A stretch of DNA of 64,000 bases from Pristiophorus japonicus. Taxonomy: Eukaryota. The translations under genes were made by a program, and so were the position numbers. Numbering within the stretch: position 1 is the first letter of the stretch; each line of letters opens with the position of its first letter. The notes under the pieces were generated by a model. That model was not told the DNA's origin. It did not search any database and worked only from the letters and a program-made list of their open reading frames with translations. This document shows positions 4,056 through 63,999 of this stretch, in pieces. The stretch lies in assembly GCF_044704955.1 (NCBI RefSeq), contig NC_091991.1:13950001-14014000 (forward strand). The letters run 5' to 3'.

Positions 4056-4121
4056 ATGAGCGGCCAGAGAACGTGCGCCGGCTGGGCCCCGCGCGGGGCG
4101 GCCCGGGGAACCCCGGAGAAG
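4056..4121 (+). CDS. PWP1: PWP1 exon 1 ([22 protein letters not shown])
   Basis: gccATG inside the CpG island; aligns to the recalled PWP1 N-terminus (QVTCVAWVRCGVAKETPDK); donor AAG|gtcagg. Confidence 0.85.
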
Positions 4122-13100: not shown

Positions 13101-16100
13101 AATACTGTGTAAAAACATTACGCGATTATGCGAGTCCACAAGCAGTTGTGACCTCGCCACAACACCGTATATAAGCGATAGTGAGGGGGAGGCTGGCAGC
13201 ACAGACCACCTCCCTGCCCTTTCCCACTCTGTCTTTCCCCCAGCCCAGACGAAGGTCCTTTAATGTTTACACGGGTGATCCTGATACCTCCCCATTGCGA
13301 CCACCATGCTGTTCTCCAACATGGGCTGTTTCAGCAGGGGCAGAGCCTGTTGTTTCCTGATGGTATGTGTAGGCAGTTTAACTGTTCGCTCGGACAATTG
13401 GATAGTCTGGAACGCTCGGGACACTGCTGTCTCCACAGTCTTTGCAGCGAATCAGTCGATTAGAAGTAACACTGAGAATTCTCATCAATGCTAACTGATT
13501 ATTTCAGAGTGCAGAGGAAGGAGAGCAGGAGGGACATACTGATGCAGTTCTCGACCTTTCCTGGAACAAGCATATCAGGTAAGACTCGCTGCCACTCTAC
13601 CGCATGCTTTTTAAGGATGTTCAAATTGTGATGTAGAGAAGCAGAATAAATGTGAGCAACGGCCCCTCCCCAGGCACTGGCTCCCCCATCCGTCCACCTG
13701 CCCCTCCCACCCTGCGCTGGCCCACTGTCCTGTCCCCTCCGTAATGCCCCCCCCCGCACTGGCCCCTTGTCTCTTCCCCCCCCCCACCCATGGCCTCACT
13801 GGCACCCTGTTCTCCCCCCGTCCCCTGCACCGCGCCCCCTGTGTGTGTGTGTCCCGCCGCACTGCCCCCCGCCTCACTGGCCCCCTGTTTTCACCCCCAC
13901 CCTGCACACTAGCCCCCTGTCATCGTCCCCCCAGTGCACTGGCCCCCTGTCCATTCCCCCCCGTCTCCTGCACTGTCCCCCACCCAGTAATGCCCCTCGC
14001 CCCACCCCCAGCATTGCCCCCTGTCACAGGCAGCACTCGCTCAGTCTCACCACAAGCCGTCGGTGATTGTTATGATTTTTTTTTTTAAGCTGCGATTATA
14101 ATGAGATACCGTTGCATAACTTCATAACTTTTATTTTTGTTCAAGCATTTGTGTAGAATATTAGTGTGATTCCCTGTGTTGCTACTCACTCCTCCACTAG
14201 TGTGGGCCGATCAGGGGAATTAGAGAAGCTGCAGTCTAACCAGCTGCCACCAGATGGTGCTGTTGGTTTATTTTCCTACTCTTGCCTGGTTTACTGCTAG
14301 TAACTAGAGAGGAAGTGGGCTGTGTACTGCTCGTAACTAGCTAGGAGAGAGGAAATGGGCAGGTTAGTTCTAGTAACTAGCGAGGAAGTGTATGATTGGC
14401 CCATGCACGCCTCGTGTTCACAGCGCTGACCCTCTGGTGATTGTAAGTCTGGAAGCAAGTGGTTTCTGGTTGTTATTTCCCAAGAGTCCTTTGTTGATGG
14501 ACTAAACATGAGGTTGAGCAGAAATGAAGAATAATCGAATGCATGGTTGCCTTTTGCTGAATTGCTGAAGGACAGAGAGGCGTCAGCATTTGAAGCCCTC
14601 AATGCTGCTAACTGAATGTTGTCTGTTGCACACTAGGACTGTTCTGGCCAGTGCGTCTGCGGACAAGTCCGTCATTCTCTGGGATATGTCACAGAAGAAA
14701 GCCGTGACGAATCTCTCTTCACATACAGACAAGGTAAGCTGAAACATAGCCTTCCCTTTCAGTACCACTAGCATCTGGAGCCAGAGTCACTGAGTCCCCA
14801 ACTCCTTAACTGACCTTTCCACAAACCAGGGGTTCTGCTGTCTAGTCTGCGTAGCAATTAACCTTTAAATTATCTCAGCCAACCAGAACTAGCAGCTTTA
14901 AAGGGACATCTGAGTAAACTGCTCTCTGTACTGCTGAGTACGACGCTTGTCCATCCACCATTTAATCACTCCACCATTGGCGGCCATGCCTTCAGCTGCC
15001 TGGGCCCTAAGCTCTGGAATTCCCTCCCTAAACCTCTCCGCACCTTTCCCCTCCTTTAAGACGCTGCTTAAAACCTACCTCTTTGGCCAAGCTTTTGGTC
15101 ACCTGTCCTAATGTCTCTTTCTGTGGCTCGGTGTTTATTTTTGTTGGACAATTGCTCCTGTGAAGTGCCCTGGGCCATTTTCCTAAATTAAAGGTGCTAT
15201 ATAAATGCAAGATGTTGAAAAGCTGTATGTAGGCCTGACCAGTGAGTCTCCAGGTCAAACCTTTAGCAGTGTTTAATACTGCTCAAGTTATTTTATAAGA
15301 GAGCGTAATCACAGATTTTTTCTGTACTCTATCCCAGCAACGCTACATTGTTCCAACAATAACATGAGATAACTCTGAGAACTAATTACTAAAACAGGTG
15401 GTACAAAACTGCGAACAAAGGTAGCTTGCAGCAATTAAAATCCAACAGGATTTGCGCTGTGCTGAGCAATGGTGTCGTCCACTTTCACTGCAGATGTTTG
15501 GAATGAAAGCTGAGTTTGATGGTAATTATTACGGTGCAGGCGAGGGTCTAGCACGGCCGTGTGGACCCACGACTCTTTAGGATGTTTGTGTCTGGGTAGA
15601 CAAGGAACCCGGTGAAGGTGACGTACTTGCCGTGGTTGCTGTACAAAGCAAAGCGCTGGTGCTGCTGACTGTACAGCCACACTCTGTCCCCAGTTCCCAG
15701 CCACAGCATTACACTCTGACTTTGCATCTCCCGGCGCCCAGAGTCGTCTTCATCGAAAATCATGGCCTGCACCTCACTCAGGTTTTTCATCAGCTTGACC
15801 GAAATGGCCTTAAAGGGATGCTTCCCAACGTTGAAGGCGAAGTAGTAGGCGCCTGGGATCTGGCACGTGAAGAAGCCACTCAGCTTGTTAAAGTGTTTGC
15901 CGATATTGATGTATTCCACGTCGAAGGTCACCGCTTGGTGCTGCAGGGTCTCCGTACTCTCCCCCAGCAGTGACCTCGTCCTGGCGACTGAGAATGCTGA
16001 ACGAAGAGTGTCCGCTGGCTGAGGCGCTGTTTGTCGGCTCACAGAGCATCTGTTTGCTTTGGGTTTAGCAGTGGAGTGGGAACAGTTGGAGGTAGTGGGG

Positions 16101-19100
16101 ATAGAAGGCAGGCTGTTGGCCAGCCAATAGGGGGACAGCTCTGCGTAGACTAGGTAGCCAGTGAAGGTTGTGTATGGCCCTGCGTTACTGTACAAAGCAT
16201 ACTTTGAGCTGCCATGGAGGAGCAGCCAGACACTGTCGCCTATGCCTAACTTCAACATCAGGCTCTGGCTCTGCACTTTGCGATTCTTGTGCCGATCCTC
16301 ATCGAATGCAGTCGCCTGCACTTCATGCCCATTTTTCATCAGCATGACTGACAGCATCTTTTTGGGATACTTTCCAACTGTGAAGGCGAAATAATAAGCC
16401 CCAGGAATTCTGCATACCAGCCTGCCTGTGTCCGGGCGGAAGTCGTTCCCAATATTGACCAAGAGCTTGTCAAATGTAACTGCTTTCTGGAGACCTCCCA
16501 GCATGCTGCTGGTCCTGACGGCGGAGAATGCGGATTGGTCGTTGAGACTGGAGCTGTAACCAATCACTGCTGGAACTGCCCGACGGGAAAGAGATTCCAG
16601 AGCCCCGATCAGCAACACGAACCTCAGAAAGGCCATTTCCTCCTGAAAAGAGACATGGATTGGAATTGAGGAGGATGGGAAATAAATGTTGGGAAATCTA
16701 ACAGTCGATTGGCTGCGATTGCTCTGATCACTTTCACAAGCTTCAGCTGTGACCAGAAGGAAGTGAACAAGCCAGGAACCACTGCATGTTGCGAAGGTGC
16801 ATTGTAACCGTGCCTGTTTCTAATTCTTAAATATCTTGAGAGAGATTTGCAATCATGTAATGTTTTTACACAGGATTACATAGGTTATACGACACAGAAA
16901 CAGGCCTTTTGGCCCAACCAGTCCATGCCGGCGTTTGTGCTCCATTTGGGCCTCTGCCCGTTTTTCATCGTCTAAATCTATTAGCATAACCCTCTATTCC
17001 CTTTTCCCTCATCTGTACTATTCACTGCAACCACTCCCTGTAGTAGCGAGTTCCACATTCTCACTGCTCTCTGGGTAAAGAAGTTTCTTCTGAATTCCCT
17101 ATTGGATTTCTTGGTGACTATCTTATATTGATGGCCTCTAGTTGTGCTCTTCTCCACAAGTGGAAACATTCTCTCTATTCACTCTGTCAAAATCTTTCAT
17201 AAGTTTAAAGACCTCTATTAGGTCACCCCTCAGCCTTCTCTTTCCAAGAGGAAAGAGACCCAGCCTGTTCATCCTTTCCTGATAGGTATCCCCTCGCATT
17301 TCTGAGATCATCTTTGTCAATCTTTTTTGCATCCTCTCCAGTGCCTCTATATCTTCCTTATAATAATGGGGACCAGAACTGTACACAGTACTCCAAGTGC
17401 GTTCTCACCAAGATTCGATACAGGTTAGCATAACTTCTCTACTTTTTAATGGGAGTCGGGGCGAACTCCCCACTGGCTGGAGTCATACCTAACACGAAGA
17501 AAGATAGTTGTAATTGTTGGAGGTCAATCATCTCAGCCCCAGGACATTGCTGCAGGAGTTCCTCAGGGCAATGTCCTAGGCCCAACAATCCTCAGCTGCT
17601 TCATCAATGACCTTCCCTCCATCATAGGGTAAGAAGTGGGGATGTTCGCTGATGAGTGCACAGTGTTCAGTTCCATTCGCAACTCCTCATTTAATGAAGC
17701 AGTCCATGCCCGCATGCAGCAAGACCTGGATGACATTCAGGCTTGGGCTTATAAATGACAAGTAACATTCATGCCACACAAGTGCCAGGCAATGACTATC
17801 TCCAACAAGCGAGAGTCTGACCACTTCCCCTTGGCATTACCATTGCCAAATCCCCCCCACCATCAACATCCTGGGGGGTCACTATTGACCAGAAACTTAA
17901 CTGGACCAGCCACATAAATACTGTGGCTACGTCAGAGGCTGGGTATTCTGCGGCGAGTGTCTCACCTCCTGACTCCCCAAAGCTTTTCCACCATCTACAA
18001 GGCACAAGCCACGAGTGTGATGGAACACTCATCAATTGCCTGGATGAATGCAGCTTCAACAACACACTAGAAGCTCGACATCATCCAGGACAAAGCAGCT
18101 TGCTTGATTGGCACCCCATCCAACACCCTTAAACATTCACTCCCTCCACCACTGTGGCTGCAGTGTGTACCATCTACAAGATGCACTGCAGCAACTCGCC
18201 AAGGCTTCTTCGGCAGCACCTCCCAAACTCGCGACCTCTACCACCTAGAAGGACAAGGGCAGCAGGCGCATAGGAACACCATCACCTCCAAGTTCCCCCC
18301 CTAAGTCACACACCATCCTGACTTGGAAATACATCGTCGTTCCTTCATCGTCACTGAATCAAAGTCTTGGAACACCCTCCCTAACAGCACTGTGGGAGCA
18401 CCTTCACCACACGGACTGTAGCGGTTCAAGAAGGCGGCTCACCACCACCTTCTCGAGGGAACTTCGGGACGGCCCACGTCCCATGAACGAATAAAAAAAA
18501 ATCAATTCTGTCCCTCTAGAAATAAACCCCAGTGCTTGGTTTGCTTTTTTATGGCCTTATTAAATTGCATCACTACATTTAGTGATTTGTGTATTTGTAC
18601 ATCCAAATCAATTAACTCCTCTACCCCATTTAGATTCCTATTTTCCAAGTAGTGCGTGACCTCCTTATTTTTCTTACCAAAATGTAATACCTCAGATTTA
18701 TCTGTGTTGAATTTCATTTGCCAATTATATTCTGCAAATTTATTAATGTCATCTTATAATTCGTTGCAGTCCTCCTCAGTATTGATTCATCCCTCCCCCC
18801 CACCCCAATTTGATGGTCATCCACAAATTTAGAAATTGTGTTTTTGATTCTAAAGTCCAAATCGTTATTATAAATTGCGAACAGTGGTCCCAGCTCTGAT
18901 CCTTGTGGAACAACATTACCCACCTTCTGCCACTGTGAATAGTTACCTTTCACCCCTACTTTCTGTCTTGAAGCCAGCTAGCTATCCATTCTGCTACTTG
19001 TCCCAACTCTGATTCTCTGACCTTGTTCATCGGTCTATTCCGGGGTACCTTACAAGAACCTAAGAAATAGGAACAGGAGTAGGCCATACAGCCCCTCGAG

Positions 19101-22100
19101 CCTGCTCCATCATTCAATAAGATGATGGCTGATCTGATCATGGGCTCAGCTCCACTTCCCCGCCCGCTCCTCATTACCCCTTATCGTTTAAGACACTGTC
19201 TATTTCTGTCTTAAATTTATTCAATGTTCCAGCTTCCACAGCTCTCTGAGGCAGTGAATTCCACAGATTTACACTCAGAGAAGAAATTTCTCCATATCTC
19301 AGTTTTAAATGGACGGCTCCTTATTCTAAGGTCATGCCCTCTAGTTCTAGTCTCCCCCATCAGTGGAAACGTCCTCTCTGCATCCACCTTGTCAAGCCCC
19401 CTCATAATCTTATACATTTCGATAAGATCACCTCTCATTCTTCTGAATTCCAATGAGTAGAGGCCCACCTACTCAACCTTTCCTCATAAGTCAACCCCCT
19501 CATCCCCGGAATCAACCTAGTGAACCTTCTCTGAACTGCCTCCAAAGCAAGTATACCCTTTCGTAATTATGGAAACCAAAACTGCACGCAGTATTCCAGG
19601 TGTGGCCTCACCAATACCGTATATAACTGTAGTAAGACTTCCCTGCTTTTATATTCCATCCCCTTTGCAATAAAGGCCAAAATTCCATTGGTCTTCCTGA
19701 TCACTTGCTGTACCTGCATACTAACCTTTTGTGTTTCATGCACAAGTACCCTCAGGTCCCGCTGTACTGCGGCACTGAAAGCCTTTTGGAAATCTAGATA
19801 AATTACATCTATTGCGTTACCCTTGTCCACTCTCTCTGTTTAACAGAACAAAGTTCTGAATTTACGGCAGAATTTGTTTTTTGAAGTATTCTTGTTTCTA
19901 ATTGGCACAGGATGTGTTTTATTCAAACAGTGGGATTTTTAATTGTGAGATTACACTCTGGGTATGTTTGCACAGCTGCCAGTGAAGGACACGTCCCACA
20001 GAGGTATGGTGTGAAATAGTGGGCGATTTTAACCCTACCCACCCAGCAGGTATCAGCTGTGTGGCCGACTAAAACCCCCACCCCTGGGTTATTCACCGAA
20101 ATCTGCTGGGATCTCACCACAGGCCAGGCGGGGACCCTCACAGGTTCACATCACGTCCCGATGGCAGCATCGCAGCCCAACTTGTGAGTCTAACTGGGGC
20201 CTGAGCCGGGAAACACATTGGCTTTCCTGCCAGGTGAAGGGCCGGGGCCAGGAGAGACCCAAGACGCGGGTCTTTCCTTGTGTGGCGAGACCCCCTGGGT
20301 GGGAAGTTGGCCAGTGGGGTTTAAGTGAGGCCCCGCAGAGTAGCGAGTGAGTTTCCTGCTCCCACTCAACACCCAAAACCCACCCGCAGTTCAAATTGGG
20401 GCCAGATCTTAGAAACGTCTCCGTGTTTCAAAATGCTGAATAATATAATGCTATAAATGAAAAGTACCAATGAATGTCGGCACACCACCAACCCAAAGAT
20501 AAAACCATGGGACATCAGCGGCCTGCCTCTGTGACAATGTGTAGACACACACGGGCACACACACGACAGCTGGTTTGGGCAGTGTATTAAGATGCTCAAG
20601 CATAATCCCTGAAGTAACTGAACAGCTCACGCGCTATTGGCGGGGTGGGAGGACTTAAGGCGGTGTTAGAATGTTGTACTGTGTTCTGTGGGAGTTATTA
20701 TTCTATTTGTTTTTAAGGACCTTGAATATCTTTAACTTATGGGGAGGCGGGTGTTCCTTCTGACAGTGGAAGTGTCCCTTGGGGAACTTGCAAACTATGT
20801 CGACAGATCTCAAAGGCAAAATGGTATGTTCTGGATATTGTAGCCAGTCTGAACCGTGATGTGGGTGCACTTGTTACGAGCAGTGCGTCTCTCATTCATG
20901 TTTTATACATGACCAGCTTGCACAGAACATTGAGGAAGACTCTATATCCGTCAATGGGGAATTCTACATCAGATAGTCTTTCTGCAGTATATTTTGTGAA
21001 GCAAGGTTAGTACAATCAATAGAAACATAGAAAATAGGTGCAGGAGTAGGCCATTCGGCCCTTCTAGCCTGCACCGCCATTCAATGAGTTCATGGCTGAA
21101 CATGCAACTTCAGTACCCCATTCCTGCTTTCTCACCATACCCCTTGATTCCGCTAGTAGTAAGGACTTCATCTAACTCCTTTTTGAATATATTTAGTGAA
21201 TTGGCCTCAACAACTTTCTGTGGTAGAGAATTCCACAGGTTCACCACTCTCTGGGTGAAGAAATTCCTCCTCATCTCGGTCCTAAATGGCTTCCCCCTTA
21301 TCCTTAGACTGTGACCCCTGGTTCTGGACTTCCCCAACATTGGGAACATTCTTCTTGCATCTAACCCGTCTAACCCCGTCAGAATTTTAAACGTTTCTAT
21401 GAGGTCCCCTCTCATTCTTCTGAACTCCAGTGAATACAAGCCCAGTTGATCCAGTCTTTCTTGATAGGTCAGTCCCGCCATCCCTGGAATCAGTCTGGTG
21501 AACCTTCGCTGCACTCCCTCAATAGCAAGAATGTCCTTCCTCAGGTTAGGAGACCAAAACTGTACACAATACTCCAGGTGTGGCCTCACCAAGGCCCTGT
21601 ACAATTGTAGCAACACCTCCCTGCCCCTGTACTCAAATCCCCTCGCTATGAAGGCCAACATGCCATTTGCTTTCTTAACCGCCTGCTGTACCTGCATGCC
21701 AACCTTCAATGACTGATGTACCATGACACCCAGGTCTCTTTGCACCTCCCCTTTTCCTAATCTGTCACCATTCAGATAATAGTCTGTCTCTCTGTTTTTA
21801 CCACCAAAGTGGATAACCTCACATTTATCCACATTATACTTCATCTGCCATGCATTTGCCCACTCACCTAACCTATTCAAGTCGCTCTGCAGCCTCATAG
21901 CATCCTCCTTGCAGCTCACACTGCCACCCAACTTAGTGTCATCTGCAAATTTGGAGATACTACATTTAATCCCCTCGTCTAAATCATTAATGTACAGTGT
22001 AAACAGCTGGGGCCCCAGCACAGAACCTTGCGGTACCCCACTAGTCACTGCCTGCCATTCTGAAAAGTCCCCATTTACTCCTACTCTTTGCTTCCTGTCT

Positions 22101-25100
22101 GACAACCAGTTCTCAATCCATGTCAGCACACTACCCCCAATCCCATGTGCTTTAACTTTGCACATTAATCTCTTGTGTGGGACCTTGTCGAAAGCCTTCT
22201 GAAAGTCCAAATATACCACATCAACTGGTTCTCCCTTGTCCACTCTACTGGAAACATCCTCAAAAAATTCCAGAAGATTTGTCGAGCATGATTTCCCTTT
22301 CACAAATCCATGCTGACTTGGACCTATCATATTACCTCTTTCCAAATGCACTGCTATGACATCCTTAATAATTGATTCCATCATTTTACCCACTACCGAT
22401 GTCAGGCTGACCGGTCTATAATTCCCTGTTTTCTCTCTCCCTCCTTTTTTAAAAAGTGGGGTTACATTGGCTACCCTCCACTCCATAGGAACTGATCCAG
22501 AGTCAATGGAATGTTGGAAAATGACTGTCAATGCATCCACTATTTCCAAGGCCACCTCCTTAAGTACTCTGGGATGCAGTCCATCAGGCCCTGGGGATTT
22601 ATCGGCCTTCAATCCCATCAATTTCCCCAACACAATTTCCCGACTAATAAAGATTTCCCTCAGTTCCTCCTCCTTACTAGACCCTCCGACCCCTTTTATA
22701 TCCGGAAGGTTGTTGGTGTCCTCCTCAGTGAATACCGAACCAAAGTACTTGTTCAATTGGTCCGCCATTTCTTTGTTCCCCGTTATGACTTACCCTGATT
22801 CTGACTGCAGGGGACGTATGTTTGTCTTTACTAACCTTTTTCTCTTTACATATCTATAGAAACTTTTGCAATCCGTCTTAATGTTCCCTGCAAGCTTCTT
22901 CTCGTACTCCATTTTCCCTGCCCTAAATCAAACCCTTTGTCCTCCTCTGCTGAGTTCTAAATTTCTCCCAGTCCCCGGGTTCGCTGCTATTTCTGGCCAA
23001 TTTGTATGCCACTTCCTTGGCTTTAATGCTATCCCTGATTTCCCTAGATAGCCACGGTTGAGCCACCTTCCCTTTTTTATTCACAATGCTTCATTCCCAT
23101 CGCATCTCTCCTCTTCAGAGCTCTGTTACTGGCCTGTACCTCCGACCTGCCCATCATTCCCAGCAAACACTGAACACCGACACAAACTCCAGGAGCTGTG
23201 CTCATTGTGCTGCCACCTCCAATTCCATTTACAGTTTGCAAAGGCGGCCAAGACCCAACTCAGTCCCTCAAATATTTCTCCAATTCTCCCTCGAACATAC
23301 CCCATTGCTTCCAGGACAGTCTATTGCACACCTTTACCACACTCTGTGTCAGGTAGGTAGGCCTGCTCCTTCTGAGCCCAGCCCATGTCCTGCCGAGTCT
23401 GCCACACCCGCAAGCATCTTATTGGGTTTCAATTTATCAGTTCCTTCAAGAAGCTTGAATAATCTCCCCTGAACCTTCTCTCTTGCTGCACAAACAGTCC
23501 CAGCCTCTTCATTCTCCAGGTTTGTAACGTAATGTGTAAATAATGGATGCCTTCTATCAGTTAATGTAAAAGAAAATATTTTTCTGGTAATCTAAACATC
23601 TTTTTTGGAATTCTTTGACCTACTTTAGTAACTGGGGCCGATCACGTCCACAGTTGTCACCTTGCAGCGACATTAGAGTGAGGGCAGAGAATTTATACAG
23701 CGATCGGTACTGTGGCTCTTTGGGCCGGTTCCAAGGCCAGTGAATTGAACCTGTTTGTCCCGTGCCGAGTCCCCGAGGCAGCCTGTCCCATAGATTGGCT
23801 CCTTGCTCACTGAAATATTGTTTCCGGGGATTAGTTTTGAATTTTCCTCTCCGAGCACAGGCCGTGACTTCTGGTTCTGCTGTTCTGGACACGGCGAGGC
23901 AGCAAGTCGTGGTCGACATTATCCAATCCCTTTTAGAATCCTAAAAACCGCAATCGCATCCCCCTCGCGTCTCCCTCAAACCGTTCACTGGGTTAGCTGC
24001 TGCTGGACTCAAATCCTTTCAAGTAGCAATGCTGCAGGTTTATTTGTCACTGAGTGTCTATGTGCCCTGTTTAACCCTCCAATGTTTACTGGGCTGGAAA
24101 CTAAAGCTGTGGCTCCACTCTGCAAGCAATCCGGTATCTGGCTATAAATATAAAGTAAGCGCAAATTAAATATAAATCCTGCAGTATTTATAAAAAGTAA
24201 ATGTACTTACGAAACAGATCAGCCGGGTTTTGATCCTTGAAGCTGTGGGTTATAAATATTGTGTAATGGAGGTACAGACCTGTCTGATTTAAGCTTCAAG
24301 TTGCTGCAGGTGAGTGAGCTCAAGGTCAGTGCTGTTTGTTTGCAAGTTCCTGGTGTTTCTCTGTCAGGTGCAGTTCTGTGTGCGCTGGTTACTATTTGAA
24401 TGTTTAGTAGCAGTGAATAAAAGGTGCCATGTACCATTAAGAATGAGGATCAGCAGATTAAACAGCCAGAAGCCTTGTTAGTCCATCAGACAGACTGTGT
24501 TCCAACAGATCATCGTCAGCAATGGGTGGGGGTCTGTGTTTGTGAGACTCTGTTGCCAGCACCAGTACCACAGGTCTTGATGCAATAACAGAAATTTTAA
24601 GATTAAGATCATCATAAATTAAGCTGCTTCCTTTTTAAAAAAAAAAAATATATTTTCTGCTGAGCATAATTGTTATATTCACAGCAAGGTTGCCATGTTG
24701 TTAAATCATACACTGTCTGGTGTTCAGGGACTGTGGGAGTGATTGTTACTGGGTTAATAATCCAGGAATCATGAGTTCCAATCCCACCAGGGCAGTTTGA
24801 GAATTTGAATTCAGTTTCAAAAATAAATCTGAAAATAAAAAGCCAGTCTCAGTAAAAGTAACCATGAAGCTGTGGGATTGTTGTAAAAACCCATCTGGTT
24901 CACTGGTGTCCCTTTAGGGAAGGAAACCTGCCACCCTTATCCGGTCTGGGCCTATATGTGACTCCAGTCCCACACCAATATGGTTGACTCTTAACTGCCC
25001 TCTGAAGTGGCCCCTCAGTTGTATCAAACTCACGAGCAGCGGTTCAAGTCAGTGGCCCACCATCACTGGGCAACTAGGGATGGGCAATAAATGCCAGAGA

Positions 25101-31100: not shown

Positions 31101-31582
31101 GCTCTTGGTGTGGCGATGGAAGGCGAGGCTGTGTTAAAAGCAAATTCCCAAACTACGTATCCATTGCCAGATGCTGATGGCAGTTGCAAAGCTAAATGTT
31201 AAAGGATAGAGCGTGCTAGCTGGAGCATGTGGAGGCGACTCGGAAAGACTCCAAGTTTTAGTCCAAGCAGCATTAATTGTGCTGTTTAAAGAGGAATCAT
31301 AGTCACTGAGGCTTTTGGGGCAAGGTTTTCTCCTGTACAGTTAGAAACTGGGGAGGCAGAGAGAGGGTGGGGGACAGGCGAGTAGGACGGGGGGGAGGGT
31401 GAGGGCATGGGGGAGGCAGGGAGAGGGCAGGGTGGAGGCGAGTAGAATTAGGGGAGGCGGGGAGACACGGAGAGCTGGCGGAGGCGAGTAGAGCAAGGAG
31501 ACTGGAAGAGCGGGGGGAAGGCGAGTTGAACGAGGGGAAGCGGGGAGAGGGGATGCAGGGGGAGGCACAGCTCCTCTGATCT

Positions 31583-31653
<71 letters not shown>

Positions 31654-37600: not shown

Positions 37601-40600
37601 GCTTCCCAAATCCCCTTATCGCTCAAGAAACTGTCTATTTCTGTCTTAAATTTATTCAATGTCCCAGCTTCCACAGCTCTCCGAGGCAGCAAATTCCACA
37701 GATTTACAACCCTTTAAGAGAAGAAATTTCTCCTCATCTCTGTTTTAAATGGGTGGCCCCCTATTCTAAGATCTAGTTCTAGTCTCCCCCACCAGTGGAA
37801 ACACCCTCTCTGCATCCAGGCTGTCAAGCCCCCTCATAATCTTATACGTTTCGATAAGATCACCTCTCATTCATTCTTCTGAACTCCAATGAGTAGAGGC
37901 CCAACCTACTCAACCTTTCCTCATAAGTCAACCCCCTCATCCCCGGAATCAACCTAGTGAACCTTCTCTGAACTGCCTCCACAGCAAGTATATCCTTTCG
38001 TAAATATGGAAACCAAAACTGCACACAGTATTCCGGGTGTGGCTCACCAATACCTTGTATAGCTGTAGCAAAACTTCCCTGCTTTTATACTCCATCCCCT
38101 TTGCGATAAAGGCCAAGATACCATTGGCCTTCCTATTACTTGCAGTACCTGCATACTATCCTTTTGTGTTTCATGTACAAGTACCCCCAGGTCCCGCTGT
38201 ACTGCAGCACTTTGTCGTCTTTCTCCATTTAAATAATAACTTGCTCTGATTTTTTTCTGCCCAAGTGCATAACCTCACACTTTCCAACATTATACTCCAT
38301 CTGCCAAATTTTTGCCCATTCACTTAGCCTGTCTATGTCCTTTTGCAGATTTTTTTGTGTCCTCCTCACAAATTGCTTTTTCTCCCATCTTTGAATCGTC
38401 AGCAAACTTAGCTACGTTACACTCAGTCATTTTTTCGAAGCCGTTAATATAGATTGTAACTAGTTGGGGTCCCAGCACTGATCCATGCGGCACCCCACTA
38501 GTTACTGGTTGCCAACCAGAGAATGAACCATTTATCCCGACTCTGTTTTCTGTTAGTTAACCAATCCTCTATCCGTGCTCATATATTACCCCAAACCCTG
38601 TGAACATTTATCTTGTGCAGTAACCTTTTATGTGGCATCTTGTCAAATGCCTCTGGAAGTCCAAATACACCACATCCACTGGTCCCCCTTTATCCACCCT
38701 GTTCGTTACATCCTCAAAGAACTCTAGCAAATTTGTCAAACATGACTTCCCCTTCATAAATCCATGCTGACTCTGCCTGACTGAATTTTGCTTATCCAAA
38801 CGTCCTGCTACTGCTTCTTTAATAATAGACTCCAACATTTTCCCAACCACAGATGTTAGACTAACTGGTCTATAGTTTCCTCTTTTTGTCTGCCTCCTTT
38901 TTTGAATAGGGGTGTTACATTTGCAGTTTTCCAATCTGCTGGGACCTCCCCAGAATCCAGGGAATTTTTGTAAATTACATTCAATGCTTTCACAATCCCT
39001 GCCGCTACTTCTCAAGACCCTAGGATGCAAGCCATCAGGTCCAGGGGATTTATCTGTCTTTAGTCCCATTATCTTACTGAGTACCACCTCCTTAGTGATT
39101 GTGATTGTGTTAAGTTCCTTCCCCCCCATAGCCCCTTGACTATCCACTGTTGGAATATTGTTAGTGTCCTCTACCGTAAAGACTGATGCAAAATATTTTT
39201 TCAGAGTTTCTGCCATCTCCATGATCCACTTTACTAGTTCCCCGGTCTCGTCCTCTAAGGGACAAACATTTACTTTAGCCATTCTTTTCTTTTTTATATA
39301 CCTATAGAAACTCTTGCAATCTGCTTTTATATTTTGTGCTAGTTTACTTTCATAGTCTATCTTCCCTTTCTTAATCATTTTTTTAGTCGTGCTTTGCTTG
39401 CTTTTAAAAGTTTCCCAGTCTTCTGTCCTCCCAGTAGTTTTGGCCACTTTGTATGCCCTTGTTTTTAATTGGATACTGTCCTTTACTTCAGTTAGCCACG
39501 GATGGCTATTTTTTCTCTTACACCCTTTCCTCCTCACTGGAATATATTTTTCTTGAGAGTTGTGAAATATCTCCTTAAATGTACACCACTTTCATCAACT
39601 GTCCTACACTTTTATCTATTTTCCCAGTCCACTTTACCCAACTCTGCCCTCATACCTTCATAGTCTCCTTTATTTAAGCTTAGTATGCTGGTTAGAGATC
39701 CAACTTTCTCACCCTCCATCTCAACTTGAAATTCCATCATGCTATGATCACTCATTCCGAGGGGATCCTTTAATAGGAGATTGTTTATTAATCCTGTCTC
39801 ATTACACAGGACCAGATCTAAGAGAGCCTGCCCACTGGTTGGTTCCATTACATACTGCTCAAGAAACCCATCCCCTATGCACTCTATGAACTCCTCCTCA
39901 AGGCTACCCTGACCAATTTGATTTGTCCAATCAATATGGAGGTTAAAATCACCCATGATTATTGCTGTTCCCTTTTTACAAGCCCCCACTATTTCCTGGC
40001 TTATGCTCCGACCATTAAATGCCGGCCTTGCCAGCAATGCCCACATCCCATGAATGAATAATTTAAAAAGTGCGCCATCTTTGGAAGTCTGAATCATCCT
40101 ATATACCAACACAATTCTATACAATTATAGAATTTACATCACGGATACAGGCCATTCAGCCCAACAGGTCCATGTCAGTGTTTATGCTCCACACAAGCTT
40201 CCTCCCACCCCTAGTCATCTAACCCTGTCAGCAAACATATCCTTCTATTTCTTTCTCCATCATTTATTTATCCAGCTTCTCCTTAAATGCATCTCTGCTT
40301 TTCACCTCAACCACACCCTGTGGTAGCGAGTTCCAGATTCTCACCACTCTAGATAAAGATGTTTCTCCTGGATTCCCTATTGGATTTATTAGTGACTATC
40401 TTATATTTATGGCCCCTAGTTCTAGTCTTCCCCACAAATGGATGCATCTTCTCTACGCCTATCCTATCGAACCCCTTCATAATTTTAAAGACTTCTAGCA
40501 GGTTACCCTTCCGTCTTCTCTTTTCTAGAGAAAGGAGTCCCAGCCTATTTGGCCTTTACTGATAGTTATAACCTCTCAAATCTGGTAAAGTCCAACAATG

Positions 40601-43600
40601 TGAGTAATTCACAAATCTGCAGTTAGACATAAACCTTCCAAGGAATGAGAAATCTTGTGAGCAATAAATTCATTTCTATCACTTTCCAAATCTGACTGTC
40701 ACTGTAGGGAGAAATCGACAGGAGTCAAATGGTGAGAGTTTGTGGCAATTGGTGGGAGACAGAATCTTAGAATCTTACAGGTCTGAACGAGGCCATTCGG
40801 CCCGTCGTGCCTGTGCCGGCTGTTTGACCGAGTGACCTGATTCATCCCAGAGATATATTGGAGATTGTATGGGAAAGACATTAGTAAAGAAAAAATGCTA
40901 AATACTGGATGGGATAAGAATTGATAAAGAGGAGGTACTAGAAAGGTTGGCTGTACTTAAAGTAGATAAGTCACCAGGACCAGATGGGATGCAGCCTCGG
41001 ATGCTGAGGGAGGTTAAGGAGGAAATTGCGGAGGTGCTGGCCATAATCTTCCAATCCTCCTTAGATACAGTTTAACCTTGGTCATGGGGAAGCTTTTCGA
41101 AACTGTAATCAGGGAAAAAAATTAACAGTCACTTGGATAAGGGTGGATTAATTAAGGAAAGCCAGCACGGATTTGTTAAAAGCAAATTGTGTTTAACCAA
41201 CTTGATCGAGTTTTTTGATGAGGCAACAGATGGTTGGTGAGGGCAAAGTGGTTGATGTGGTGTACATGGGACTTCCAAAAGACGTTCGACAAAATGCCAC
41301 ATAATAGGCCAGCCAGCAAAGCTGAAGCCCATGGAATAAAAGGGACAGTGGCAGCATGGATACAAAATTGGCTAAATGACAGGAAAACCGAGTAGTGGTG
41401 AACGGTTGTTTATAGGACTGGAGGAAGGTATACAGTGGTGTTCCCCAGGGATCAGTACCAGGACCACTGCTTTTCTTGAAATATATTAATGACTTGAATG
41501 TTGGTGTACAGGGCACAATTTCAAAATTTGCAGATGAGACAAAACTTGGAAGTATAGTGAACAGTGAGGAGGATAATGGTAAACTTCAAAAATACATAGA
41601 CAGGCTGGTGAAATGGGTGGACACGTGGAAGATGAAATTTAACGCAGAGAAGTGTGAAGTGATACATTTTGGTAGAAAGAATGACGAGAGGAAATATAAA
41701 CTAAAGGATACAATACTAAAGGGGGTGAATGAAGAGAGAGGGACACTTGCGGAGGAGCAGCAAGAGATCGTGGCGGAGGTGTGGCGAATGTCTTTGTGGT
41801 GGAGGAGCGGCGAAAGCTCGTGGTGGCAGTGCGGCAAATGTTTGTGGCAGAGGAGTGGCGAGAGATCGTGGCGGAGGAACGGTGAGGGATTGTGGTGGAG
41901 GTACGGTGAATGTTTGTGGCGGAGGAGAGGCAAATGAGGGTACGGGGCCCAGAAGATCCAAGGGCCCAGGGACAGCCCACACTGCGATATGTGTGTGCTC
42001 TAGGTCCATGCAGCAGAACAGGTCTCCAGTCGTCCTGGTTAATCCTTGCTATTGGATAAAGGCCTAGCTCTGTCGAGCCCATGTGGTGGCTGATGTGCAG
42101 CGGTCACCACACGTTAAAAAAATCCACCCACAGACATCTTCTGTCCCTTCAATTGGAGTTCAGGACTGGATATCGGGTCCTTCATTGAAACATCTGTGAA
42201 CTCATGTGGAAGCAAGTCATCCTCGTTCGAGGGACTGCCGATGTCCTAATAAATCTTTTTTGCAACTTTTCCAATGCCTGTCTGTCCTTTCTGTAATATG
42301 GAGACCAGAATTGCACACAGTGCTCCAAGCGTGGTCTAAAGGTTCTATACAAGGTTAACAAACACCCCTGCTTTTCAATTCTATCCCTTTAGAAATGAAC
42401 CCCAGTGCTTTGTTTGCACTTTTTATGCCTTTGTTGACCTGTTTTACTACTTTGTGTATCTGTACCTCTGGATCCCCTTTCTGTATCCCTAGATCTCTTT
42501 ATTCTTTCCCTAGATCCCTTAAGAGACTGAGTCCAGCTTTCCTATAAATTAGCTGCTGTGCAAGCTTGAAATTTTGCCTCCATGCCAGCGCGTACAGTAA
42601 TCTAATGTGGATCGCAGTGAGGTGCATATTCTAATCGGAGAGCATGAAAGAATGTTGGCAAGTAAAATCAGGGAAAACACACAAAGGTGTTTTATAAATA
42701 CATTAAGAGCAAGAGGATAACTAGCGAATTAGTGGGGCCTATTAGAGACCACAGAGGAAATCTGTGTGTGGAGGCAGAAGATGTGGGTATGATTCTTAAT
42801 GAATACTTTGCATCTGTTTTCACAAAAGAGAGAGGCGATGCAGACTTTGCAATGAGGGAGGAGGAGTGTGAAATATTAGATGCGATAAACATAGTGAGAG
42901 AGGAAGTATTAAGGGGCTTAGCAGCTTTAAAACTGGTTAAATCCCCAGGCCTGGATGAAATGTATCCCAGGCTGTTAAGAGAAGCAAAGGAGGAAATAGC
43001 AGGGGCTCTGACTATCATTTTCCAGTCCTCGCTGGCTACAGGTGTGGTGCCAGAGGACTGGAGGACTGCTAATGTTGTACCTTTGTTTAAAAAGGGAGAA
43101 AGGGATAGACCGAATAATTACAGGCCAGTCAGCCTAACCTCAGTGTGGGAAAAGTATTGGAAAAAATCCTGAGAGACAGGATAAATCTTCATTTGGAAAG
43201 ACAATGATTAATCAGGGACAGTCACCATCGATTTGTTATGGGAAGGTCATGTCTGACTAATTTGATTGAATTTTTCGAGGAGGTAACCAGGAGGGTCGAT
43301 GAGGGCAGTGCATTTGATGTAGTGTATATGGATTTTAGCAAAGCTTTTGATAAGGTCCCACATGGCAGACTGGTCACGCAAGTAAAAGCCCATGGGATCC
43401 AGGGCAAAGTGGCAAGTTGGATCCAAAATTGGCTTGGAGGCAGGAAGCAAAGGGTAATGGTTGGGATGTTTTTGTGACTGGAAGGCTGTATCCAGTGGGG
43501 TTTCGCAGGGCTCAGTGCTGGGTCCCTTGCTTTCTGTGGTATATATTTTCATCGCCTCCAGGCTAGATCCAAGACCGTCCCATTCTCTGTCATCGAAATA

Positions 43601-46600
43601 CAATACATGGATGACATTTGCGTCTGCGCGCATTCAGAGGCTGAACTCCAAGCCATCGTCAACATCTTCAACTAGGCGTACGAAAGCATGGGCCTTACAC
43701 TAAACATCCGTAAGGCAAAGGTCCTGCACCAACCTGACCCCGCCCTATAGCACTGCCCCCGCCCCCCCCCCGGTCATCAAAATCCACGGCTCAGCCTCGG
43801 ACCACGTGGACCACTTTCCATACCTCGGGAGCCTACTATCGGCAGGGACAGTCATCGATGATGAGGTCCAACACCTTCTCCAGTGCATCAGCGCAGCCTT
43901 CGGTCGCCTGAGGAAGAGAGTGTTTGAGGATCAGGCCCTCAAATCTGGCACCAAGCTTATGGTCTACAGGGCTGTAGTGATACCCGTCCTCCTGTAAGGC
44001 TCAGAGATGTGGACCATATACAGCAGACACCTCAAATCGCTGGAGAAATATCACCAACGATGTCTCCGCAAGATCCTGCAAATCCCCTGGGAGGTTAGAT
44101 ACACCAATGTCAGTGTTCTCGATCAGGCCAGCATTGAAGCACTGACCGCACTCGACCAGCTCCGTTAGGCGGACTACACTGTCCGCATGCCGGACACAAG
44201 ACTCCCAAAGCAGCTCTACTCGGAACTCCTACATGGCAAGCGAGCCCCAAGTGGGCAGAGGAAACGTTTCAAGGACACCTTCAAAGCCTCTTTGATAAAG
44301 TGCAACGTCCCCACCGACACTTGGCCAAAGACCACCCTAAGTGGAGGAAGAGCATCCGGGAGGGCGCTGAGCACCTCGAGTCTCGTCACGAGAGCATGCA
44401 GAAAACAAGCGCAGGCAGCAGAAGGAGCAAACGGCAAACCAGTCCCACCCACCCTTTCCTTCAACGACTGTCTGTCCCACCTGTGATAGAGACTATAATT
44501 CCTGTATTGGGCTGTACAGTCACCTGAGAACTCATTTTGAGTGGAAGCAAGTCTTCCTCGATTTTGAGGGACTGCCTATGATGATGATGGACTTGAATGT
44601 TGGGGGTTAAGAAGTTTGCAGATGACACTAAAATAGGCTGTGTGGTTGATAATGCAGAAGAAGTGTAAACCACAAGGTGATAGGAAGGGACGATATGTAT
44701 GAATATAAAGAGGCTGCAGGAGGGGTCAAAACTAAAAATCATGGTTTAAAAACTAGTATTAAAACACTCTACCTAAACGCAAGCAGCATTCGAAATAAAG
44801 TCAATGAGTTGACGGCACAAATCATTACAAATGGGTATGATTTGGTGGTCATTACAGAAACGTGGTTGCAGGGGGGCCAAGACTGGGGATTAAACATACA
44901 GGGTTATCTGACAATTCGGAAAGATAGACAAGAAGGGAAAGGAGGTGGGGTCGCTCTGTTAATAAAGGATGATATCAGGGCAATTGTGAGAGACGAAATG
45001 TTATGAACAAAAAATCTTATGAACAAAATGTTGAATCATTGTGGATGGAGATTAGAGATAGTAAGGGGAAAAAGTCACTGGTGGGCGTAGTTTATAGGCC
45101 CCCCAAATAATAACTTCACGGTGGAGCGGGCAATAATCAAGGGAATAATGGAGGCATATGAAAAAGGAACGGCAGTAATCAAGGGGGATTTTAATCTACA
45201 TATCGATTGGTCAAATCAAATCGCACGGGGTAGCCTGGAGGAGGAATTCATAGAATGCATACGGGATTGTTTCTGAGAACAGTATGTTACAGAACCTACA
45301 AGGGAGCAAGCTACCTTAGATCTGGTCCTGTGCAATGAGACAGGAATAATAAACGATCTCCTTGTAAAAAATCCTCTCGGAATGAGTGATCACAGTATGG
45401 TTGAATTTGTAATACAGATTGAGGGTGAGGAAGTTGTGTCAGAAACGAGCGTACTATGCTTAAACAAAGGGGACTACAGTGGGATGAGGGCAGAGTTGGC
45501 TAAAGTAGACTGGAAGCACAGACTAAACAGTGGCACAATTGAGGAACAGTGGAGGACTTTTAAGGAGCTCCTTCATTGTGCTCAACAAAAATATATTCCA
45601 GTAAAAAAGAAGGGCGGTAAGAGAAGGGATAACCAGCAGTGGATAACCAAGGAAATAAAGGAGAGTATCAAATTAAAAACCAATGCGTATAAGGTGGCCA
45701 AGGTTAGTGGGAAACTAGAAGATTGGGAAAATTTTAAACGACAGCAAAGAATGACTAAGAAAGCAATAAAGAAAGGAAAGATAGATTACGAAAGTAAAGT
45801 TGCGCAAAACATAAAAACAGATAGTAAAAGCTTTTACCGATATATAAAACGGAAAAGAGTGACTAAAGTAAACGTTGGTCCCTTAGAAAATGAGAAGGGG
45901 GATTTAATAATGGGAAATGTGGAAATGGCTGAGACCTTAAACAATTATTTTGCTTCGGTCTTAACAGTGGAAGACACAAAAACCATGCCAAAAATTGCTG
46001 GTCACGGGAATGTGGGAAGGGAGGACCTTGAGATAATCACTATCACTAGGGGGGTAGTGCTGGACAGGCTAATGGGAATCAAGATAGACAAGTCCCCTGG
46101 TCCGGATGAAATGCATCCCAGGGTATTAAAAGAGATGGCGGAAGTTATAGCAGATGCATTCGAGATAATCTTACCAAAATTCTTTGGACTCTGGGGAGGT
46201 ACCAGCGGATTGGAAAGCAGCTAATGTAACGCCTCTGTTTAAAAAAGGGGGCAGATAACATCTGTAATGGGAAAAATGCTTGAAGCTATCATTAAGGAAG
46301 AAATAGCGGGACATCTAGATAGGAATAGTGCAATCAAGCAGACGCAGCATGGATTCATGAAGGGGAAATCATGTTTAACTAATTTACTGGAATTCTTTGA
46401 GGATATAACGAGCATGGTGGATAGAGGTGTACCGATGGATGTGGTGTATTTAGATTTCCAAAAGGCATTCGATAAGGTGCCACACAAAAGGTTACTGCAG
46501 AAGATAAAGGTACGCGGAGTCAGAGGAAATGTATTAGCATGGATAGAGAATTGGCTGGCTAACAGAAAGCAGAGAGTCGTGATAAATGGGTCCTTTTCGG

Positions 46601-49600
46601 GTTGGAAATCGGTGGTTAGTGGTGTACCACAAGGATCGGTGCTGGGACCACAACTGTTTACAATATACATAGATGGCCTGGAAGAGGGGACAGAGTGTAG
46701 TGTAACAAAATTTGCAGATGACACAAAGATTAGTGGGAAAGCGGGTTGTGTAGAGGACACAGAGGCTGCAAAGAGATTTCGATAAGTTAAGCGAATGGGC
46801 TAAGGTTTGGCAGATGGAATACAATGTCGGAAAATGTGAGGTCATCCATCTTGAAAAAAAAAACAGTAAAAGGGAATATTATTTGAATGGGGAGAAATTA
46901 CAACATGCTGCGGTGCAGAGGGATTTGGGGGTCCTTGTGCATGAATCCCAAAAAGTTAGTTTGCAGGTGCAGCAGGTAATCAGGAAGGCGAATGGAATGT
47001 TGGCCTTCATTGCGAGAGGGATGGAGTACAAAAGCAGGGAGGTCCTACTGCAACTGTACAGGGTATTGGTGAGGCCGCACCTGGAGTACTGCGTGCAGTT
47101 TTGGTCACCTTACTTAAGGAAGGATATACTGGCTTTGGAGGGGGTACAGAGACGATTCACTAGGATGATTCCGGAGATGAGAGGGTTATCTTATGATAAT
47201 AGATTGAGTAGACTGGGTCTTTACTCGTTGGAGTTCAGAAGGATGAGGGGTGATCTTATAGAAACATTTAAAATAATGAAAGGGATAGACAAGATAGAGG
47301 CAGAGAGGTTGTTTCCACTGGTTGGGGAGACTAGAACTAGGGGGCACAGCCTCAAAATACGGGGGAGCCAATTTAAAACCGAGTTGAGAAAGAATTTCTT
47401 CTCCCAGAGGGTTGTGAATCTGTGGAATTCTCTGCCCAAGGAAGCAGTTGAGGCTAGCTCATTGAATGTATTCAAGTCACAGATAGATTTTTAACCAATA
47501 AGGGAATTAAGGGTTACGGAGAGCGGACGGGTAAGTGGAGCTGAGTCCACGGCCAGATCAGCCATGATCTTGTTGAATGGTGGAGCAGGCTCGAGGGGCT
47601 AGATGGCCTACTCCTGTTCCTAATTCTTATGTTCTTATGTAAGAAAGCTGCGGTTTGCAGGAAGATATCTATGTACTGGTCAGTGAGCGGAACAGTGGCA
47701 AATGGAATTCAATCCAGATAACTGAGAAAATGCATTTGGGGAGGTCTAACCAGGCAAGGGAATACACATTCAGTTGAACGACACTAAAAAGGAACAAAGG
47801 GGACTGTAGGTCCACAGATCCCTGAAGGTAGCAGCCCAGGTAGCTCAGGTGGTTAAGAAGCATATGGAATACTTGCCTTTATTAGTCTAAACATAGAATA
47901 CAAGAGCAAGGAGATTATGCTTGAACTGTATAAAACACTGGTTAGGCTGCAGCTGGAGTACTGTGTGCAGTTCTGGTTACTACATTACAGGAAAGATGTG
48001 ATTGCACTGGAAAGGATGCAGAGGAGATTTACAAGAATGTTGCCTGTACTGGAGAATTTTGGCTGAGGAAAGATTGTAGATGCTGGGTCTGTTTTCTTTG
48101 GAACAGAGGAGGCTGAGGGGGGAGACCTGATTGAGGTGTATAAAATTATGAGGGGCCTGGATAGAGTGGATAGGGAGGGCCTGTTTCCCTTGGCAGAAGG
48201 GTCAAAACCAGAGGACATAGATTTAAAGTAATTGGGGGGAGGTTTACAGGAGATTTGAGGGGATATGTCTTCACCCAGAGGGTGGTGGGGATCTGGAACT
48301 CAGTGGCTTGAAAGGGTGGCAGAGGCAGAAACCCTCACCATATTTAAAAGGTACTTGGATATGCACTTGAAGTGCCGTAACTTACAGGGCTACAGACCAA
48401 GATCTGGAAAGTGGGATTAGGCTGGATAGCTCTTGGTCGGCCGGCGTGGACACAATGGGCCGAAATGGCCTCCTTCTGTGCTGTAAATTTCTATGATTCT
48501 ATGATATCGCAGTGTGTGTGCGTGCTATAATCTGATGCAGATCGCAATGTCCGTGTGTGTGCAGCAATCTGATGCAGGTTTATTTCAGGGGCCCGAGGTT
48601 TGCCTCAGCTCCTCCGCTGCTGAAGCCCTCATCCATGCCTTTTGTTACCTCCAGACTTGACTATTCCAGCGCACTTCTGGCTGGCCTCCCACATTCTACT
48701 CAAACTAGTGGTGATCCACAACTCGGCTGCCCATATCCTAAGTCCCGATCACCCATCACCTCTGGGCTCGCTGATCTATATTGGCTTCCGGTTAAGCAAC
48801 GCCTCGATTTCAAAATTCTCATTCTTATTTTCAAATTCCTCCATTTCCTCCTTGCCCCTCCCTATCTCTGTAATCTCCTCCAGCCTTATAACCCTCCGAG
48901 ATGTCTGCGCTCCTCTAATTCTGCCCTCTTGAGCATCCCTGATTATAATCGCTCCACCATTGGTGGCCGTGCCTTCAGCTGCCTGGGCCCCAAGCTCTGG
49001 AACTCCCTGCCTAAACCTCTCCGTCTCTCTATCACTCTTTTCTCCTTCAAGACTCTCCTTAAAACCTAGCTCTTTGACCAAGCCTGCCCTAATTTCTACT
49101 TGTGCAGCTCGATGTCAATTTTTTTATATCGTAATACCCCTGTGAAGTGCCTTGGGATGTTTCACTACTAAAGGCGCTATATAAATACAAGTTGTTGTCG
49201 CTTGTGCATTGCTGTGAATCTTTAGCTCACTCACTCTTTTCCTTTCAGGTGCAGACTCTCCGCTGGCATCCGTTTGAAGCACAGACTCTTCTCTCTGGAT
49301 CTTTTGACAAGTGAGATACGATTCTAGGCATTTGTCTCCATTTTGTAAGTTATCCCCTCCCCTCTTGGAGCGTTGCTATCTTTGTCCTAACAGGCCCACC
49401 AGCTCTTCATATTTACAATTGCCAGCCTCTTGTTCAACTCTCTTCATGGCTTCGCCCCCCTCCCCCCCCATCTCTATAACCCCCTCCAGCCCTACACCAC
49501 TCCCTATCTCTAACCTCCTCCAACCCTACACCCTTCCCTAGCTCCGTAACCTCCTCCAGCCCCACAACCCTCCCTATCTCTAACCTACTCCAGCCTCTAC

Positions 49601-56835: not shown

Positions 56836-57033
56836 TCTGAGCGATGCCGACACTTCCAGCATTGGCAGATATTTATCTAAAACTTTTCAACTCTTCCTGC
56901 TAAGTTGTGGATGGACTTGGAATGTATTGATTATAAAGAGCAAAGAGAATGATGAATGTGAATTTTTTGAAGTTCTATAACATTATATAAATTACTGAGC
57001 AGGTATCCTGCCTCGTGTAACATTCTACTTCAC

Positions 57034-63482: not shown

Positions 63483-63577
63483 GCTGTACCTCAGGGTCAA
63501 TCCCAACAGTGAGTGAATAAAGTCTGATTGTAACTCTGCCACACGATGAGTTTTAACTCTTCACTTTTGCCTTGCAG

Positions 63578-63999
63578 GGGAACTGTTCTATCTCTTCGAA
63601 GACCGCTACTTAATTCCGAGTTTCAGCTGTTTTGCGATCGCGTACCTTCTGTACAGTGCAGCGTTTGGGCTGAAGAGGGACAATCTGTACCTGGGTGGGA
63701 TCATGTTCCTCGTGATGTTGTCCGTGTATTACTTCGCGTCTCCGGGAGTTCACGGTCTGCCCCAGGCTGTGTCCTATGCGTACACTGTGCCACTCGTGCT
63801 GATGATCTGGAGAGCAGTGGCTTGGTGTCGGCGGAACCACCGCAACAGCTTGCTTGGTCTGTTCGGGACTATCATACTTGCCATGTCCGACACTGTCCTG
63901 TCAGATCGCTTATTTTCATTCCCGGTCCCTCACCATGCGTACCTTGTGAGTTCCTCCTACTATGCAGGACAGCTCTTCATCGCCCTGTCTGTCACATAG
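63578..63999 (+). CDS. TMEM86/YhhN-like terminal exon (ELFYLFEDRY...MIWRAV...AMSDTV...FPVPH...SYYAGQLFIALSVT*); full protein ~208 aa
   Basis: cttttgccttgcag|, phase 1, open to TAG at 63997-63999; YhhN motifs WRA, SD, FPVP and YY.(A/G)Q..(I/V)ALS; several hydrophobic TM segments. Confidence 0.9.

Follow-up and report, generated by a model that had tools for sequence, protein, structure and literature searches.

An intact two-C1q gene, apparently a sister paralogue of C1QTNF4/CTRP4, lies antisense within intron 9 of PWP1 in Pristiophorus japonicus

The 64,000-nucleotide stretch of Pristiophorus japonicus DNA analysed here (hereafter the window; C15:13,950,001–14,014,000 of a 5.9-Gb genome) carries PWP1 on its plus strand and, on the minus strand within PWP1 intron 9, a single-exon gene for a protein of the C1QTNF4/CTRP4 family with two C1q domains. 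Tandem-C1q proteins of this family fall into two clades, of which clade A holds all tetrapod sequences among the matches listed and clade B holds the nested gene. An initial annotation had placed an intact 362-residue open reading frame (ORF) with two gC1q domains on the minus strand of a 34,515-nt PWP1 intron more than ten times as long as any other fully sequenced PWP1 intron there, and this description proved exact. Host and guest map as follows.

4056..56840, plus strand: PWP1 host gene, 15 coding exons (tblastn with five PWP1 proteins; the end of exon 2 lies inside the N gap at 4786–4985)
14637..14733, plus strand: PWP1 exon 9, ending in HTDK, donor GTAAGC (protein mapping and spliced frame)
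14734..49248, plus strand: PWP1 intron 9, 34,515 nt, GT-AG, phase 0, gap-free, at least 66% repeat or derived from long interspersed nuclear elements (LINEs)
15548..16636, minus strand: single-exon coding sequence (CDS) of 362 aa, a CTRP4 paralogue of clade B, probably C1QTNF17 / teleost c1qtnf13
49249..49310, plus strand: PWP1 exon 10, starting VQTLRWHPF (tblastn and spliced frame)

The identity of the host is indicated by five PWP1 proteins that align exon by exon to the plus strand (tblastn), by one exon that matches 'Periodic tryptophan protein 1' in the PDB, and by exon 7, whose top named matches are PWP1 proteins. Joined at GT-AG sites, exons 4–15 give a single open frame in which the only stop is the final one, and the spliced product is identical from exon 5 onward to database protein P0387. 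That database model differs at its N-terminus, skips exon 4 and appears truncated, the altered N-terminus probably being due to the gap at 4786–4985, which lies in intron 2 and is the sole N run in the window. At the junction of exons 9 and 10, HTDK meets the donor GT at 14733 and the acceptor AG meets VQTL at 49249; tblastn with the five PWP1 proteins detects no duplicate PWP1 exons within the intron. The next PWP1 intron by size measures 2,909 nt and is 11.9-fold shorter.

The nested ORF starts with ATG and has zero internal stops, its product contains two C1q stretches (PF00386; expectation value, E, 3.4e-64 in Pfam), and its full-length identity of 81–83% to shark orthologues indicates that it is not a chance ORF. 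Its features are the following.

16643..16660, minus strand: candidate splice acceptor, a pyrimidine tract plus CAG, 6 nt 5′ of the ATG (from sequence)
16550..16636, minus strand: predicted signal peptide with a hydrophobic helix at residues 2–19 (hydropathy peak 2.56, similar in CTRP4 relatives; helix in the structure model)
16148..16531, minus strand: gC1q domain 1, aa 36–163 (Pfam and structure model)
16082..16084, minus strand: linker Cys185, typical of clade B (alignment A1)
15593..15997, minus strand: gC1q domain 2, strands at aa 214–348 (Pfam and structure model)
15272..15277, minus strand: candidate polyadenylation signal ATTAAA (motif scan only)

An AATAAA at 15139, found in the same kind of scan, sits inside a repeat. 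Like human and mouse C1QTNF4/CTRP4, the nested protein combines a tandem gC1q pair and a hydrophobic N-terminus with the lack of a collagen Gly-X-Y stalk, Pfam giving C1q only. The AlphaFold model (predicted local distance difference test score, pLDDT, 82.9) displays two jelly-rolls, and its closest PDB structures are single-chain adiponectin and C1q head trimers (template modelling score, TM, 0.66), the packing of the domains being a prediction. The position of Cys185 is occupied by cysteine in 20/22 clade B rows versus 4/21 clade A rows of alignment A1, and a linker with one or more cysteines is found in 95 of 99 clade B rows. The C1q model deposited for this locus (P0001) begins at Met45, without the predicted signal peptide, and appears truncated.

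The candidate acceptor implies an upstream 5′ exon, and the longer isoforms P0510 and P0521 of two other sharks diverge at it. When the N-terminal extensions of P0008 and P0510 were compared with the intron by tblastn, no significant match pointed to such an exon, and scans of intron 9 for TATA, CpG and donor signals gave no clear promoter. Besides its own minus-strand coding exon, the nested gene would probably possess its own promoter and, upstream of the coding exon within the intron, a non-coding 5′ exon joined to the candidate acceptor 6 nt 5′ of the ATG; PWP1 splicing would then remove the nested gene together with the intron.

Third codon positions hold 30 of the 49 differences in a partial list of those to a relative's contig (p 6e-5), and relative to other sharks the nested protein is 80–91% identical in its domains versus 28–64% in the linker, which as a comparison of sequences shows a purifying pattern on the nested CDS. 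Contigs of relatives, from runs presumed by guess to be RNA, unstranded and without an expression level, cover the nested CDS at 15623–16654 (X1) and 15571–16554 (X6); the lone loose contig end of the gene falls inside the divergent signal-peptide region. In X8, whose unique pieces show 0–1 differences, contig depth at PWP1 exon 9 is far above that of a short nested-CDS piece, a contrast that hints at tissue restriction of the nested gene, contigs being unable to rank genes.

The placement of the gene within the family was examined with two homologue sets, the best 120 of 542 matches to the window protein and the best 120 of 518 to the second horn-shark paralogue, and the matches listed for both queries comprise two kinds of tandem-C1q protein; those closest to the window protein come from sharks. 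In a main tree of 23 proteins, picked for species spread, clades A and B are split with 100/100 support, follow species relationships within each, and are both represented by one copy in nine species. Clade B unites the window gene with sharks, chimaera, coelacanth, bichirs, paddlefish, holosteans and teleosts. The nested gene does not group with tetrapod C1QTNF4, and groups instead with gar, coelacanth and teleost 'C1q and TNF related 13' proteins. Compared with clade A, its identity is 60–67% in domain 1 and 56–64% in domain 2, and it differs from C1QTNF4 in its separate clade, in linker Cys185 and in six diagnostic residues. In a 54-row tree with tunicate-like outgroups, clade B retains support of 100 in the Shimodaira–Hasegawa-like approximate likelihood ratio test (SH-aLRT), and a Ciona protein stands outside all 50 vertebrate rows (SH-aLRT 100), on long branches, with the root unresolved and no valid cyclostome row.

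These trees bear on whether the nested gene might be orthologous to human C1QTNF4 and have been relocated to PWP1 in the lineage of this shark. We regard this as extremely improbable: the gene groups in clade B, away from the clade that contains the tetrapods; forcing the window protein together with the canonical shark copies is rejected (approximately unbiased test, p-AU 2.65e-17); both copies are present in nine species; and the PWP1 link described below is common to coelacanth and bowfin. By its placement the nested gene is a sister paralogue of human C1QTNF4/CTRP4, not its orthologue, as the initial annotation had proposed. The opposite outcome that it had envisaged, a sole CTRP4 that groups with human C1QTNF4, is found in its first half, the nested gene being the only CTRP4-family gene found in the assembly, and not in its second. 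As both clades hold cartilaginous and bony fishes, the duplication predates the jawed-vertebrate radiation; the tree cannot tell an origin in the first from one in the second round of vertebrate genome duplication (1R and 2R).

When the 119 other proteins of the best 120 of 542 matches were scored, 98 fell in clade B and 21 in clade A, each named tetrapod being in A; of the 20 unnamed clade B proteins, 19 group with teleosts and the other with cartilaginous fishes. Among the matches listed, clade B includes neither a tetrapod nor a lungfish protein, which suggests that fishes kept the clade B gene and that it apparently disappeared in the lineage leading to tetrapods. The loss that the initial annotation put forward for mammals thus looks wider, extending to tetrapods and lungfish among these matches.

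The link to PWP1 appears to be shared well beyond this shark. In seven of the eight non-teleost species looked up (Heterodontus, Mustelus, Chiloscyllium punctatum, C. plagiosum, Amia calva, A. ocellicauda and Latimeria), the accession numbers of the clade B gene and PWP1 are at most 2 apart, and in 8/8 the two lie on records of equal length, whereas in all three teleosts (Chanos, Cheilinus, Conger) they lie on records of different length. This pattern points to an old linkage followed by separation in teleosts, the cause of which it does not give; judged from it, the PWP1 link is at least as old as the split of sharks and bony fishes and is broken in teleosts. In contrast to the nested gene within PWP1, canonical c1qtnf4 is near ndufs3 and ptpmt1 in teleosts (PMC8812170).

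The wider neighbourhood is that of a paralogon. RIC8 copies occur on C15 (0.65 Mb from the window), C14 and C19; YhhN/TMEM86 loci on C15 (in the window), C14, C19 and C22 (two); and FAM180 copies on C15 and C14. A family match to NDUFS3 lies on C14 at 135.6 Mb, the nested gene on C15 at 13.97 Mb. These C15/C14 pairs fit the 1R/2R duplications. In PMC7353957, 'C1QTNF4/17' is one of 15 families common to gar LG27 and LG8 and ascribed to 1R/2R; two gar family members are among the matches listed, and the second gar copy of that paper is very probably the orthologue of the nested gene. The initial annotation's view of the gene as an ohnologue is largely right, in that the gene appears to reside in the paralogon expected from 1R/2R (RIC8, TMEM86 and FAM180 pairs; PMC7353957).

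Taken together, we hold with good confidence that the locus contains an intact, predicted secreted two-C1q gene, sister to CTRP4, antisense in PWP1 intron 9 and likely derived from the early vertebrate genome duplications. Several observations weigh against parts of this reading. The absence of tetrapods is drawn from the best 120 of 542 and 120 of 518 matches, and the third-position count from 49 of 87 differences. The 54-row tree leaves the root unresolved and does not recover clade A as a single clade, and in it clade B adjoins the cartilaginous-fish A copies (SH-aLRT 90, unstarred). P0373, labelled Lampetra planeri, groups among teleosts, is perhaps mislabelled and supplies no date for the duplication; because of this placement it was not used for dating. 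In Polypterus the accessions of the clade B gene and PWP1 are 1,060 apart, the record length being equal. One relative's contig continues 12 nt beyond the candidate acceptor with no listed difference. The Mustelus paralogues lie on records of the same length, ~800 accessions apart, which counts against simple ohnology, as ohnologues are expected on different chromosomes unless these have fused. Finally, canonical C1QTNF4 was not found in the assembly with three protein queries, so that the pair is not demonstrable here.

Some of these points would also be accommodated by an ancient single-gene duplicate or retrocopy of C1QTNF4, inserted in PWP1 intron 9 before jawed vertebrates radiated. The CDS occupies one exon, and insertion is a frequent origin of antisense nested genes without introns; the unresolved root, the long clade B stem and the single Mustelus record would agree with such an event as well. 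It would, however, require a chance landing in a region paralogous to the parent's chromosome, and the Heterodontus copies lie on records of different length, so that we consider it rather unlikely.

A further alternative accepts the gene and takes its nesting as lineage-specific or as an artefact of assembly, host and guest being mere neighbours elsewhere. Adjacent accessions indicate neighbourhood and cannot prove nesting, accession order being blind to the difference; the nesting is directly seen only in the window, and no read spans intron 9. Nevertheless, the gene lies between exons 9 and 10 in their proper order, the splice sites are canonical, the frame runs on across the junction, and neither a gap nor a duplicated exon is seen; a late move into the intron would require an extra event. 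This alternative is unlikely, and we retain descent of the nested gene from the early genome duplications, with its position inside PWP1, as the preferred reading.

The initial annotation had suggested looking for a separate C1QTNF4 next to MTCH2/FAM180B/NDUFS3, and tblastn detects none beside FAM180 or NDUFS3. On C14, none is present in 200 kb that surround FAM180 and continue below it, in another 200 kb lying on both sides of the satellite described next and inside it (~30 kb of the satellite only sampled), or in the 200 kb around NDUFS3, where two weak matches (E 0.07 and 0.35) were dismissed. Directly after FAM180 lies a ~350-kb CA/GT satellite (C14:79.05–79.40 Mb) that changes strand at an N gap (C14:79,098,298–79,098,497), and human gene order would place C1QTNF4 on the satellite side of FAM180. 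With a satellite and an assembly gap at the expected site, loss of canonical C1QTNF4 is not established. For Heptranchias, a clade B copy is listed and no canonical CTRP4 occurs among the 120 listed cluster representatives; a loss of canonical CTRP4 common to this group of sharks is possible, and clustering may hide a copy.

Around NDUFS3, C14:135.56–135.75 Mb holds NDUFS3-like exons beside exons that we take from their motifs to be PTPMT1- and KBTBD4-like, then a stop-interrupted element resembling an endogenous retrovirus (135.714–135.723 Mb), after which follows a 1,034-aa frame, presumably RAG1-like by its motifs. The gene order of this region differs from the c1qtnf4-ndufs3-ptpmt1 block of teleosts. 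Within the window, a YhhN-family (TMEM86-like) coding exon is found at 63550–63996 on the plus strand, ~6.7 kb past PWP1, and the RIC8–TMEM86 distance is at most 0.7 Mb on both C15 and C19. Human has two TMEM86 genes, and the TMEM86-like gene of the window is possibly another ohnologue missing from human. Two Pfam searches for cryptochrome/photolyase, which give a lower bound, return one gene at C14:119.69–119.71 Mb and a single exon on C17. They return none in the C15 interval from RIC8 to PWP1 (~13.3–13.9 Mb), the position of CRY1 in human, and this shark may have lost CRY1 and further members of the photolyase family. No Rfam RNA families were detected in the window.

The length of intron 9 finds its explanation largely in its repeats. 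At least 66% of it is repeat or LINE DNA, versus 40% in 12 other introns, as measured with a repeat library of 71 fetched loci plus the window, and retrotransposon build-up beside the nested gene accounts for most of its length. Its LINE pieces include the following.

21113..22768, minus strand: LINE reverse-transcriptase ORF, one of many LINE pieces (PF00078, E 3.6e-34; tblastn map)
44653..47532, plus strand: LINE ORF2 pieces with endonuclease and reverse transcriptase, in intron 9

Between 16700 and 49248, LINE matter before ~40.7 kb comprises 9,310 nt on the minus and 372 nt on the plus strand, and after it 210 nt minus and 6,215 nt plus; this strand switch is not significant (10 merged blocks, permutation p 0.41) and was set aside. 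The initial annotation had proposed that the intron grew to hold the promoter and enhancers of the guest, and an expansion under selection for this purpose remains doubtful. The candidate acceptor does imply an upstream exon, and ~10.8 kb of the intron, the CDS aside, has no repeat match in the limited library and exceeds any other PWP1 intron. Against this, the repeat share is as given above, the CpG-rich windows do not reach the strength of the PWP1 promoter island and for the most part lie over or beside LINE pieces, the promoter was not located, and short upstream regions suffice for omp nested in capn5 (PMC13378369). The proposal is therefore not supported, and accumulation of retrotransposons is preferred.

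By analogy with CTRP4, the nested protein likely would be secreted and oligomerise via its gC1q domains, and it might act on cell-surface partners in neural or immune signalling. Human CTRP4 oligomerises through its gC1q domains (PMC9952994, PMC8042453), domain 2 mediating its trimers and larger oligomers, and it binds nucleolin; its domains 1 and 2 do not bind each other in solution (PMC8042453). The linker cysteine of clade B may add disulphide links to such assemblies.

Antisense nesting combined with loss in particular lineages has precedents and involves no new mechanism. Like LRRTM1–3 in CTNNA introns (PMC3933685) and omp in capn5 (PMC13378369), the nested gene is compact, occupies an intron and is read against its host, and host or guest has been lost in some lineages. 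Unlike these, PWP1 has no paralogue in the searches made, one of two CTRP4 paralogues is nested, and teleosts appear to have parted host and guest. Like CHST16 (PMC7353957), the nested gene would be an ohnologue of this paralogon that fishes retain and the line leading to mammals has lost; CHST16 persists in amphibians and is reported lost in amniotes (PMC7353957), whereas no amphibian clade B copy occurs among the matches listed.

The paralogue itself is known by name and is not new, as it is already listed in PMC7353957 and named in UniRef, where teleost members are called 'C1q and TNF related 13' or si:ch211-219a15.3; the teleost proteins P0102, P0123 and P0127 with the former name belong to clade B and are not mammalian CTRP13/C1QL3. 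PMC7353957, in its accessible part, names the family only, without PWP1 nesting, tetrapod loss or function, and we found no paper on the nesting, distribution or function of the clade B gene, subscription journals being largely outside the search.

One history, which we offer as a tentative conjecture, is that the single CTRP4 of the first vertebrates already resided inside PWP1 and was freed twice, once when the PWP1 host of C1QTNF4 decayed after 1R/2R, and once when reciprocal loss following the teleost duplication parted pwp1 and c1qtnf13. The window shark, for its part, may lack the canonical copy through loss and depend solely on the nested gene, a mirror image of tetrapods. CTRP4 has been described as the sole CTRP with two C1q domains (PMC9952994, PMC8042453); fishes have two tandem-C1q CTRP genes, most of which share one database name, so that expression studies of fish 'c1qtnf4' may mix two paralogues. 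The locus may offer a clear example of how genome duplication lets a nested gene part from its host, and the fish-only sister ligand provides a natural comparison for the ancestral functions of CTRP4.

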